Source of the DNA: a virus
UHGV virus genome: UHGV-0056195
Strand: one strand, 5' to 3'
DNA: 13,210 bases
A program made the position numbers. Positions 1 through 3,000 of the stretch are shown piece by piece (the first letter of the stretch is position 1; every line of letters starts with the position of its first letter).

Positions 1-3000
1 GGTAGCCGCTGAGATTGAAGCGCTGGCCAGTGGTGCTGATAAGGATGCAATTGTGCGGGAGGCTCTTCTTCGTGATTTTAATACTCCACCCTTTAAAAAA
101 GTGCCGGCTTACTGGCTTCATCCGGGGCTGACTTATCTTAAAGTGCGTATTTAGTGGGCCAGGGACAGCGGCTGAATATTTAATATATCCATGAACACCA
201 AAATCAAATACGGCCTGTCGGCTGCCGTTCTGGCGCTGATTGGTGCTGGCGCATCTGCTCCTCAGATACTTGACCAGTTTCTGGACGAAAAAGAAGGTAA
301 CCACACCACGGCATACCGTGATGGCGCGGGTATCTGGACCATCTGTCGCGGTGCCATTCTGGTGGATGGTAAACCTGTCGTCCCGGGCATGAAGTTGTCG
401 AAGGAGAAATGCGACCAGGTTAACGCCATCGAACGTGATAAGGCGCTGGCATGGGTGGAGAAAAACATCAAAGTGCCATTGACCGAACCCCAGAAAGCGG
501 GGATCGCGTCATTCTGTCCGTACAACATTGGTCCCGGTAAGTGTTTCCCGTCGACGTTTTACAGACGAATTAATGCTGGTGATCGCAGGGGAGCATGTGA
601 GGCGATTCGCTGGTGGATTAAGGACGGTGGCAGAGACTGCCGTATTCGTTCAAACAACTGCTACGGTCAGGTATCCCGTCGTGACCAGGAGAGCGCGCTG
701 GCGTGCTGGGGTATCGACAGATAAGCAGAATATTTTGCTGAAAAATAAGGCATGGCCACGCGGGCGGATAACATGAAATCCTGCGAACTGTCGAAACGTA
801 AGTGAATAAAAGTAAAAACCCCGTTTGTTGGCAGCAAGCGGGGTTTTGTTTTTATGGCAGTAAGCTATGGGAGGCTGCCTTGATTGATTTTAGCAAACTG
901 ATTAGGGAGTTGCGACTCATGATTAGTCAATTACCAAACTGGAAATTTTTGCTGGTCTGGAGCATCCCTTTTTTATGGGTAGTATCCCAGTTAATTGTGG
1001 CAATTAAGGGGTAGCTATGTCAGACAAACTCATAACGCCGGCAAAGGTCCTGTGTGTGATTGTCGGTATTTCATTTTCACTAATGCTGGTTGCTCTTTTT
1101 CTGTCCCTCGCCTGGGTGATGTTGTCTTCGTCGGGGCTGCTGGGGTGACAGTGACTGATGACATCAGCAGAGCGCTGGCTTTTGCTATTAAGTGGGTGGC
1201 TGTTGGTATTGCTGTGTCTCCGATGCTGTATGGGCTGGCAAAACTGGTCATTGCGCTGAAATCGTGAACTTTAAAAAGATGAGTGCTGAACTTATTCGGG
1301 CAATGGCATTTGCCATTCGTATTGTGGCCATTGCTGTTCTGGTCTGGGCAATCCGTTGGTGGTGATATGAACCGTGTTCTGTGTGTGGTGATTATTGTCC
1401 TGCTGGTAGCCTGTGGTGTGCTTAGTCTGGGGCTGAATCATTACCGCGATAACGCCATCACCTACAAAGCGCAGCGCGATAAAAAAGTCAGTGAGCTGAA
1501 ACTGGCGAATGCCACTATTACTGACATGCAGCAGCGCCAGCGAGATGTCGCTGCGCTTGATGCCAGATACACGAAGGAATTAGCCGATGCGAGAGCTGAA
1601 ATTGAAACTCTGCGCGCTGATGTTGCCGCTGGTCGTAAGCGCCTGCGGGTCAACGCCACCTGCCCCGGTACCGTGCGTGAAGCCACCGGCACCTCCAGCG
1701 TGGATAATGCAACCGGCCCCCGACTGGCAGACACCGCTGAACGGGATTATTTCATCCTCAGAGAACGGTTGATGACAATGCAGAAGCAGCTGGAAGGGGC
1801 GCAGGAATATATCCGCTCAGTGTCTGAAATAAGTTTTGCTGATGCGCCGTATCGTCGCCGTATTCCCGCATTAACAGAGACCGCAGCCACCTTATCTGCG
1901 TGAGTGTGCGGGGGTAATCAAAAACGATGCACACCGGGTTTTCTCATTTTTCACGAGATGGGAGCGATTTCCCGCGAAGCCGCCTGTCCGGTGCGGTGGT
2001 GGAAGAAACCGGATAAAACAACCGCATTGTACAAATATCGATCAAACATGGCGCTGCTGTGTGAAATCTGAAAAATCACAGCGGCCATTGTGCATCAGTT
2101 TTTAACAGAGGACGTCAGAAAGTGACATGGCAAAGCTGGACTGGAAAAAGCTGGAGCAGGCATTCCGACGCGAACATGCCGAAACGGGAATAACATTACT
2201 GGACTGGTGCCGGAAGAAAAAGATTAATTACAACACCGCCAGAACCCGTATAAAAATGGGCAAAATCGATCATGAAATTGATCATAAAACCGATCATGAA
2301 ATCGATCATGACATCTCAGATGAAGAACCCAGCAATGACGCGTGTTCCGACGATGAAAAATGCGCAAAAAACTCTGAAAAAAACTGCGCAAATTCGGCAG
2401 AAACGAAACGGATTCGTGGTTCCCGACTTTTACCTCCTTCAAACGCTTTTTCTCAGCGAAACACCCACGCCGTAAGACACCGTGGATATGCGAAGTATCT
2501 TGAGGCAGATAACCTCATGGATGATGCGTCCGACATGGTGCTGTTCGATGAACTGGTGTTCACCCGGGCCCGCGCACTTTCAGTAACTAAGGCACTTAAA
2601 GGGATGTTCGCCGACCTGGAAGAGGCAACTGACGTGGAAACCCGTGTTGCTCTTTACGACAAAATACTCAAAGCTGAACAGGCCCTTGAGCGGAATATTG
2701 CCCGTATCGAGTCAATTGAACGCTCATTGCTGACGCTGGACGTCCTGGCTGAGACAGCACCAAAACTTCGTGCTGACCGGGAAAGAATCAACGCCGCCAG
2801 AGATAAACTCAGAGCTGAAACCGATATTCTGACCAGCCAGCGTCGGGGCGTTGTTACGCCTGTCAGTGACATCGTGTCATCGCTGCATGAAATGAGTAAT
2901 TCGGGGAGACTGGATGACATTCCGGAAGAATGAACCGCGATGTGATGAGCCGTCAGAAATGACCGAGGCTGAACAACGTCTGTTCATCATGACCAGACTG

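Follow-up and report, generated by a model that had tools for sequence, protein, structure and literature searches.

Four small membrane-protein genes between the SAR endolysin and spanin genes of an Escherichia coli prophage: candidate accessory lysis genes in a variable slot of a standard cassette

In the virus genome UHGV-0056195, four very small open reading frames (ORFs) lie between the gene for the signal-arrest-release (SAR) endolysin, R, and the genes for the spanins, Rz and Rz1. Here, the window is the whole stretch of this genome that was analyzed (13,210 nucleotides (nt)). A first-pass annotation of the window proposed that this lysis cassette is non-canonical and lacks a holin, and that one of the four hydrophobic products might be the lysis trigger, a factor that releases the SAR endolysin, or an antiholin. 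The question raised by the locus is, therefore, what the four micro-ORFs do in the cassette. With a probability of about 0.5, we consider that they encode non-essential accessory lysis membrane proteins, which occupy a variable slot of a standard cassette; any specific mechanism is much less probable. The micro-ORFs and the genes on either side of them are as follows.

191..724, + strand: R, SAR endolysin of the R21/RrrD type, GH24, 177 amino acids (aa), PF00959 at 1.4e-24
880..1014, + strand: ORF1, 44 aa, TTG start, Shine-Dalgarno (SD) sequence GGGAGG at 869-874, O1 family, phrog_6632
1017..1148, + strand: ORF2, 43 aa, one strongly hydrophobic transmembrane domain (TMD), good SD sequence (AAGGGG), O2 family, phrog_4906
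1145..1267, + strand: ORF3, 40 aa, GTG start, shortened copy of the A gene, phrog_1115/4493/3246
1279..1365, + strand: ORF4, 28 aa (possibly 33 aa from GTG 1264), core-only paralogue of A2, ends in IRWW, PHROG group of ORF3
1367..1903, + strand: Rz i-spanin, PF03245 at 3.7e-49
1587..1772, + strand: Rz1 o-spanin lipoprotein, embedded in Rz, PF06085 at 1.7e-21

The layout described in the first-pass annotation was confirmed. The four ORFs are on the same strand and are packed between the stop codon of R (724) and the start codon of Rz (1367). Each ORF contains a single hydrophobic stretch, corresponding to one helix. The best 19-aa Kyte-Doolittle means of the micro-ORFs, 1.9-2.9, compare with 1.67 in the SAR domain of R and 3.07 in the TMD of Rz. 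A charged C-terminal tail of the holin type is absent from all four, as had been stated: the flanks comprise 2-8 residues with a net charge of 0 to +2. The four products are probably inserted in the inner membrane as single-pass proteins with almost no periplasmic part, and their charged N-terminal flank is most likely cytoplasmic. The genes form a chain. Two nt separate the TAG of ORF1 from the ATG of ORF2; the TGA of ORF2 overlaps the GTG of ORF3 (GGGGTGA); the TGA of ORF3 overlaps the GTG at 1264, with the ATG of ORF4 at 1279; and the TGA of ORF4 is 1 nt before the ATG of Rz. Furthermore, the last codons of ORF4, GGTGGTGA, form the SD sequence of Rz. The endolysin is of the SAR type, as annotated: residues 9-174 of R match the phage 21 lysozyme (PDB 3HDE), and R also aligns to RrrD (4ZPU), the N-terminal region being included. 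The N-terminus of R is weakly hydrophobic and Gly/Ala-rich, and the E-8-D-5-T motif is visible in its sequence.

The window starts approximately 190 nt before R, and the position of a holin gene therefore falls outside it and is known from relatives. Window 700-1400 is 99.9% identical to prophages of many Shiga toxin-producing E. coli (STEC), O55:H7 CB9615 and O103:H2 12009 among them, and the CB9615 prophage aligns to window 3-1822 at 97% identity. In 5426 complete E. coli genomes, part of the stretch 700-1400 is matched in 2089 (about 40%) and at least 80% of it in 587. The ORF on the 5′ side of R is hydrophilic, as the annotation had described:

2..154, + strand: 3′ end of a hydrophilic ORF, PHROG 1085/26186; end of the 329-aa DUF1327 (YdfR) gene in CB9615

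In CB9615, this 329-aa ORF (PF07041 at 8.5e-39) consists of an N-terminal DUF1327 domain and a long C-terminal extension, and it alone separates R from the holin gene, which directly precedes it. The holin has 68 aa, is named a "class II holin" and matches PF04971 (bacteriophage P21 holin S) at 1.4e-32. The 329-aa ORF is intact (locus L001, 3460-4455); RefSeq has only a partial "YdfR family" pseudogene at this place. Among the near-identical loci that have the architecture of the window and at least 1.5 kb of DNA available upstream of R, a P21-type holin (PF04971) is present 5′ of R in 76 of 76. A published survey describes the cassettes of Stx phages as pinholin, SAR endolysin and Rz/Rz1 (PMC8136144). 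Thus, the proposal of a non-canonical cassette without a holin was not borne out, and a canonical holin stands directly upstream in every relative. In the window lie the distal genes of what is, by these comparisons, a standard lysis cassette of the phage 21 type from a 933W-like E. coli prophage; as judged from its relatives, the full order is P21-type holin (5′ of the window), DUF1327 gene, SAR endolysin R, accessory slot and Rz/Rz1. From its gene sequences and those of its relatives, the cassette is most probably of the canonical pinholin, SAR-endolysin and spanin type, and the micro-ORFs do not appear to be its holin.

Searches with hidden Markov models against holin, pinholin and releasin families, a check that the annotation had suggested, did not recognize any micro-ORF. 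There was no match for any of them at E<=1 in Pfam, NCBIfam or the PHROG "lysis" families; the CB9615 holin, with its match to PF04971, was the positive control for this search. Each micro-ORF does match PHROG families, with E-values from 6e-5 to 8e-25, and these families are catalogue entries without a function or a Pfam model. None of the micro-ORFs has the features of a pinholin (two TMDs, a SAR-like TMD1), and in ORF1-ORF4 there is no periplasmic domain, no lipobox and no spanin match in PHROG or Pfam.

The R-Rz gap is a hot spot of recombination, and different phages carry in it different combinations of three families of genes for small single-pass membrane proteins, O1, O2 and A/A2. The members have 44-45 aa in O1, 43 aa in O2 and 57-60 aa in A/A2, for which core-only forms of 28-40 aa also occur naturally. 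We compared approximately 400 related loci from IMG/VR and GenBank phages. They contain 139 distinct R-Rz intervals, in which A and O2 (45 intervals), the window type (O1, O2, shortened A and ORF4; 23), an O1-family gene (O1s) alone (22) and ant with O2 (13) are the defined arrangements. The remaining intervals are hybrids, for example A with ORF4, A with O2, shortened A and ORF4, or ant with O2 and ORF4. Other genes are also inserted in the slot, namely those for two antirepressors (Ant and one with a KilAC domain), for a D12 Dam methylase and for a fimbrial-like protein. Leftover fragments are found at the junctions of other loci, such as "...GQIRWW" with a stop codon and then "MNRVLS...". 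The arrangement in the window is best explained as a recombinant of an O1 and O2 allele (as in L209) and an A and ORF4 allele (as in L270). Two kinds of insert stand between the micro-ORFs and Rz: the D12-class Dam methylase at 1114-1881 of L114 and 1319-2086 of L119, and the fimbrial-like protein, which is secreted, at 1158-1748 of L197 (all counted from the stop codon of R).

The neighbours of these families were compared on both sides. The O1s genes are followed immediately by Rz in 36 of 36 IMG/VR loci; on their upstream side, a SAR lysozyme is present in 34 of these loci and a 138-aa non-SAR protein in two, and the latter two carry a lambda-S-type holin (PF05106). The holin that accompanies O1s is hence not constant and belongs to either PF04971 or PF05106. 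The upstream neighbour of O1 is the 138-aa protein in Citrobacter braakii and a GH108 endolysin in Edwardsiella ictaluri. In every A2 locus inspected, full-length A2 is preceded by a GH108 or M15 endolysin, in cassettes with PF16931/PF05449 holins, and a gene for a 60-aa lipoprotein (phrog_7528) starts 2 nt 3′ of A2. In every locus examined, the families are seen only inside lysis cassettes, directly 5′ of Rz or of the lipoprotein gene. Thus, the constant neighbour is a spanin or lipoprotein gene and not a type of endolysin or holin. Because relatives accompany soluble GH108 and M15 endolysins, the families are not specific to SAR endolysins. The pair of A2 and the lipoprotein gene was observed at 1888-2245 of L008, at 3001-3358 of L330 and in L405 (phiSTEC1575-Stx2k), and it occupies the position of the spanin genes. 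The mature part of the phrog_7528 lipoprotein is about 30 aa and has three Cys residues. In the complete phage phiSTEC1575-Stx2k, which carries the A2-lipoprotein pair, no Rz/Rz1 homologue was found anywhere.

These neighbours bear on the idea that the cassette has no canonical holin and that one micro-ORF serves as its trigger, as a releasin-like factor that frees the SAR endolysin or as a new kind of antiholin. The ORFs adjoin a SAR endolysin gene, they have a single TMD, and no holin model matches them. An antiholin-like side role would suit the weak TMD of A, which is rich in Ala, Gly and Ser and is of the kind that packs against holin or SAR helices. However, the P21-type holin is present in all 76 loci of the same type, and because of this upstream holin a micro-ORF is not needed as a trigger. 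Moreover, the same families occur beside soluble GH108 or M15 endolysins and lambda-S-type holins, many P21-type cassettes function without micro-ORFs, the Pfam search gave no match to the releasin family DUF2730, and the architecture of the micro-ORFs is opposite to that of Mu gp25. We consider this idea very unlikely, and a role of a micro-ORF as lysis trigger or SAR-release factor was not supported. In the reading that we prefer, the four products would modulate the membrane phase of lysis and would be tied to its spanin or outer-membrane end, rather than to release of the SAR endolysin.

To assess whether the micro-ORFs are genes, we compared the pairwise ratio of nonsynonymous to synonymous polymorphism (pN/pS) among reading frames. 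The called frame gave 0.53 for O2, 0.36 for the ORF4 region, 0.23 for O1 and 0.19 for both A and O1s. In the two other frames, the values were 0.66-2.7, and the called frame gave the lowest value for every family; for the ORF4 region, the other frames gave 0.66 and 1.55. Because pN/pS is lowest in the called frame, purifying selection acts at the protein level, and by this measure the micro-ORFs are genuine protein-coding genes for small membrane proteins. In 23 distinct variants of the window type, ORF2, ORF3 and ORF4 are intact in 23 of 23 and ORF1 in 22 of 23; these variants are closely related, and their intactness is therefore weak evidence. The first-pass annotation had suggested that the ORFs may be an unrecognized class. 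They do appear to be real, uncharacterized small membrane-protein genes with no holin, pinholin or releasin match, but they are neither tied to SAR endolysins nor a replacement for a holin. Longer ORFs run across the micro-ORFs in other frames (995-1267, 90 aa; 1192-1365, 57 aa; 1283-1903, 206 aa), and many database entries are mis-called extensions of the micro-ORFs, namely "hypothetical proteins" of 71-112 aa and a call from 1112 by the prokaryotic genome annotation pipeline (PGAP).

ORF1 had been placed at 919-1014. The ORF is real, but it starts at TTG 880 and not at ATG 919, and the feature hence begins at 880. The O1 homologues of Salmonella phage SPN3UB, Citrobacter and Edwardsiella start at an aligned GTG or TTG, and pN/pS in codons 2-14 of O1s, upstream of the internal ATG, is 0.14. 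The product of ORF1 consists of a charged amphipathic N-terminal region of 22 aa and then one TMD. Its homologues in Salmonella phage SPN3UB, C. braakii and E. ictaluri have 44-45 aa and are all encoded directly 5′ of Rz; among the GTDB representative genomes, O1 was found only in the latter two species. Homology of O1 to A/A2 was considered and rejected (hhalign probability of 4.8% over 13 columns). By eye, the C-termini are alike (LIVAIKG and LVIALKS, and IRWW). Because the profile-profile comparison gives no support for homology, we count O1 as a separate family.

When 5.8 billion proteins were searched, 103 relatives of ORF2 were found; every one is from E. coli, and the length of 43 aa is kept down to approximately 65% identity. 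The profile comparison of O2 with A/A2 was also negative. The annotation had offered, as an alternative, that ORF2 and ORF3 are one two-helix gene, which has been split by a frameshift at the G run 1131-1134 or 1141-1144. One sequence looks like such a gene: P0197, on a single short Logan contig, is an 83-aa in-frame fusion of ORF2 and ORF3. However, this fusion is due to an indel within LSL(A/T)W, away from the G runs. The junction at the G runs, ctgctggggTGAcagtgactgatgac, is identical in 120 loci, and the stop codon of ORF2 is kept in 40 DNA variants across 259 loci, where it precedes Rz, ORF3 or ORF4-like genes. The most frequent arrangement has the reverse order: the A gene, with its own start and N-terminal domain, is 5′ of ORF2. 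Thus, ORF2 is free-standing, in most of the 259 loci and with different genes downstream, and a split gene is extremely unlikely.

The origin of ORF3 and ORF4 was revealed by phages PhiR12_2_star and PhiR5_2, in which R is followed by the terminator, gene A of 60 aa (MEKYKRILLRLTMKNGLELKAPVTDDISRALAFAIKWVAVGVAVSPMLYGLAKLVIALKS), a homologue of ORF2 and, finally, Rz. ORF3 corresponds to residues 23-60 of the 60-aa A protein. ORF4 corresponds to residues 31-57, the C-terminal 27 residues, of a 57-aa protein, A2, which is encoded in phiSTEC1575-Stx2k and at least 80 IMG/VR contigs. ORF3 and ORF4 both match phrog_4493, phrog_3246 and phrog_1115, and A and A2 cross-match the same PHROGs. The ORF3 family has 121 relatives, from Escherichia and Salmonella, in forms of 60, 48 and 38 aa; no confirmed A locus was found in the GTDB representative genomes. 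The segment that is missing from ORF3 and ORF4 is basic (KYKRxxLRLxMKxG), and codons 2-22 of A are themselves coding, with a pN/pS of 0.22. An AlphaFold2 model of a 63-aa A protein, used for secondary structure only, has two helices, a short one at 5-17 and a long one at 27-62, with a pLDDT of 82-89 in the latter. The TMD of the A family is weakly hydrophobic, with a Kyte-Doolittle value of 1.9. The annotation had also raised the possibility that the micro-ORFs are fragments of a known gene broken by indels. ORF3 and ORF4 are indeed N-terminally shortened versions of the 60-aa and 57-aa genes, but the shortening came about through recombination and not through indels.

Shortened genes could be mere remains. 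ORF3, ORF4 and perhaps the others would then be recombination scars, which are kept only for translational coupling to Rz and for its SD sequence. The truncations of A and A2, the hybrid junctions and leftovers such as "GQIRWW-MNRVLS", the position of the Rz SD sequence within the last codons of ORF4, and a frameshifted ORF3 in phage phiSTEC1589-Stx1c speak for this explanation. Several observations oppose it. Core-only genes of 38 aa that start with ATG (MNAELLRAAAFAIKWVAVGIAVSPMLYGLAKLIVALKS and its relatives, P0234-P0237) are present on dozens of contigs, P0234 alone on 56, and such core-only forms recur with a conserved leader in several contexts. The leader 5′ of the ORF4 ATG, AAYTT(TA)TTTAAAMAG-ATG-AGT, is shared by three contexts that differ on the upstream side. 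The GGGGTGA junction is the ORF2 stop and the Rz start in phages with A and O2, and its GTG is reused in the window as the start of ORF3, which therefore has a working start context. The low pN/pS of the ORF4 region in its own frame and the intact ORF2-ORF4 in the 23 variants, albeit closely related ones, point in the same direction. We regard the scar explanation as unlikely. Because of the core-only genes, the conserved leader of ORF4 and the inherited GGGGTGA junction, ORF3 and ORF4 are best described from their sequences as N-terminally shortened paralogues that are not necessarily dead.

Two further elements lie between R and ORF1, within approximately 155 nt of non-coding DNA.

725..814, + strand: conserved non-coding block with a variable palindrome, GCGGATAACA and an A-rich tract, in this order; present from E. 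coli to Salmonella
815..852, + strand: intrinsic-terminator-like hairpin of 15 pairs, followed by a T tract

No sigma-70-like promoter site was found on the + strand of window 1-2400, and the − strand of the same region has one weak promoter-like site, fewer than expected from shuffled sequence. There is no terminator between the micro-ORFs and Rz; the strong terminator-like hairpin is upstream of the ORFs, and its stem differs in sequence among other phages while the pairing is maintained. Lacking a promoter of their own and lying downstream of a terminator, the four genes are probably transcribed only late. From lambdoid late-gene biology, we infer that Q-modified RNA polymerase coming from pR′ probably reads through the hairpin at 815-852, and that the four ORFs are probably translated as a coupled chain, in which the last stop codon hands ribosomes to Rz. 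The features of a type I toxin-antitoxin system (a known toxin or small RNA (sRNA) family, an antisense promoter or sRNA) were not found.

Beyond E. coli, the block after R is conserved in prophages of Salmonella and in phage SPN3UB (approximately 75% identity). The palindrome 3′ of R keeps its position and varies in sequence: many E. coli have CGTTGGCCAACG, Salmonella and Citrobacter have GTGGCGCCAC, and in the window it is imperfect. A search of the block against Rfam gave nothing at the gathering threshold and only chance-level matches (E of about 0.7-0.8), among them ohsC with 22 bits against a cutoff of 50. The sRNAs AgvB and AsxR are located elsewhere, namely at the pR′ insertion site, which precedes the lysis genes (PMC4104026), and the block was therefore rejected as either of them. 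The block at window 725-860 could be an sRNA derived from a 3′ untranslated region or a protein-binding site.

The expression signals bear on another explanation: the genes may be cargo that is unrelated to lysis and is of benefit to the prophage or the host, for example by excluding superinfecting phages or by modulating a membrane protein of the host, in a permissive slot that also receives ant, dam and bor. Exclusion by small membrane proteins of prophages is well known. The slot does take unrelated genes, and the three families are freely shuffled, duplicated and lost. Expression in the lysogen is, however, not evident, given the lack of a + strand promoter-like site and a terminator that is upstream and not downstream; in addition, the genes are translationally chained into Rz, and the families are seen only in lysis cassettes, 5′ of Rz or the lipoprotein gene. 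We consider cargo rather unlikely.

Several points weigh against the reading that we prefer, in which the micro-ORFs encode accessory lysis proteins. K-12 Qin has no micro-ORFs, and rrrQ is directly before rzpQ; phage 933W retains only an O2-like ORF. Because many functional lambdoid cassettes do without them, any role of the micro-ORFs is dispensable. The association with Rz could be plain linkage within a co-inherited block. ORF3 and ORF4 are without the N-terminal domain of their full-length relatives, the frameshift in phiSTEC1589-Stx1c is a 1-nt deletion inside ORF3, and some micro-ORF copies may be decaying. The constraint on O2 is only moderate (pN/pS of 0.53), and the topology is based on the charges of flanks, which are weak for ORF2, ORF3 and ORF4. 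Finally, no paper was found that mentions the peptide strings, RefSeq accessions or PHROG numbers of the micro-ORFs.

A more specific form of the accessory-protein reading is that the A/A2 and O1 proteins are a new accessory lysis class, which acts at the spanin or outer-membrane step; in its strongest form, A2 and the phrog_7528 lipoprotein would replace Rz/Rz1 in lambdoid phages without a recognizable spanin, such as phiSTEC1575-Stx2k. If this were true, ORF1, ORF3 and ORF4 would modulate the function of Rz/Rz1. We hold this specific form to be improbable. The A2-lipoprotein pair in the spanin position of such phages is nevertheless a lead that could raise interest in it.

Downstream of the micro-ORFs, the window differs from its relatives at two places. 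The gene beyond Rz is as follows.

2127-2933, + strand: small-terminase-like gene, 933W type

Near 1817, Rz has a 2-nt deletion: where relatives have cgc ACT CAG TGY CTG AAA TAA, the window is without AC. As a result, the last five residues (TQCLK), which include a conserved C-terminal Cys, are swapped for an out-of-frame tail of 30 aa. None of the approximately 400 related loci shares this deletion, and it is either a private mutation of the window prophage or a sequencing error. The interval from Rz to the terminase-like gene is approximately 460 bp shorter in the window than in phage 933W, and the absent segment includes the gene for the bor lipoprotein; window 1812 and 1843 correspond to positions 2937 and 3397 of the 933W locus (L004).

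The type of cassette is already known, and the ORFs are catalogued as hypothetical proteins and as PHROGs of unknown function. We found no paper that describes the micro-ORFs or the small-protein families of the slot, and the survey of Stx-phage lysis cassettes does not mention the ORFs. Phage lysis controls the release of Shiga toxin from STEC, and the micro-ORFs are cheaply testable candidates for further functions of the lysis cassette, for which the late discoveries of spanins, releasin and disruptin are precedents. If they are dispensable cargo or scars, the cassette is to be read as an ordinary system of pinholin, SAR endolysin and spanins. They are also a clear case of small genes that are annotated inconsistently, with wrong starts and long out-of-frame ORFs.

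The cassette may be compared with known systems. In phage 21 and lambda, R is adjacent to Rz. The cassette of phage 21 and Stx phages shares with the present one an R21-type R, Rz1 within Rz, the PF04971 holin (in relatives of the window) and the order of the late operon. In contrast, the DUF1327 gene is here between the holin gene and R, and the terminator and four small genes are between R and Rz. Morons such as bor, lom, stx and 933W ant are similar in that ant shares the R-Rz gap in 933W and that modules are shuffled between phages. Classical morons, however, have their own promoter and terminator, whereas the micro-ORFs have no promoter-like site and are chained to Rz. The releasin of phage Mu, gp25, has 99 aa and is covered throughout by DUF2730; its TMD is N-terminal (N-out/C-in), its cytoplasmic domain of 73 aa is anionic, and the protein is found in Mu-like transposable phages without a holin (PMC9239132). 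Like the micro-ORF products, gp25 is small and anchored in the membrane, and its gene is near those for a SAR endolysin and spanins. The micro-ORFs differ from it in their size (28-44 aa), their C-terminal TMD, the basic N-termini of their long forms and the presence of a holin in relatives. Antiholins and lysis regulators (lambda S107/S21-71, P1 LydB, P2 LysA and T4 RI) are alternative starts of holins or larger proteins, whereas the micro-ORF families track the spanin side and no particular holin; Pfam, PHROG and NCBIfam searches detected no sequence relationship between the two groups. In function, these antiholins and regulators, as non-essential membrane-associated proteins that tune the timing of lysis, offer the closest analogy to the role that we propose for the micro-ORFs.

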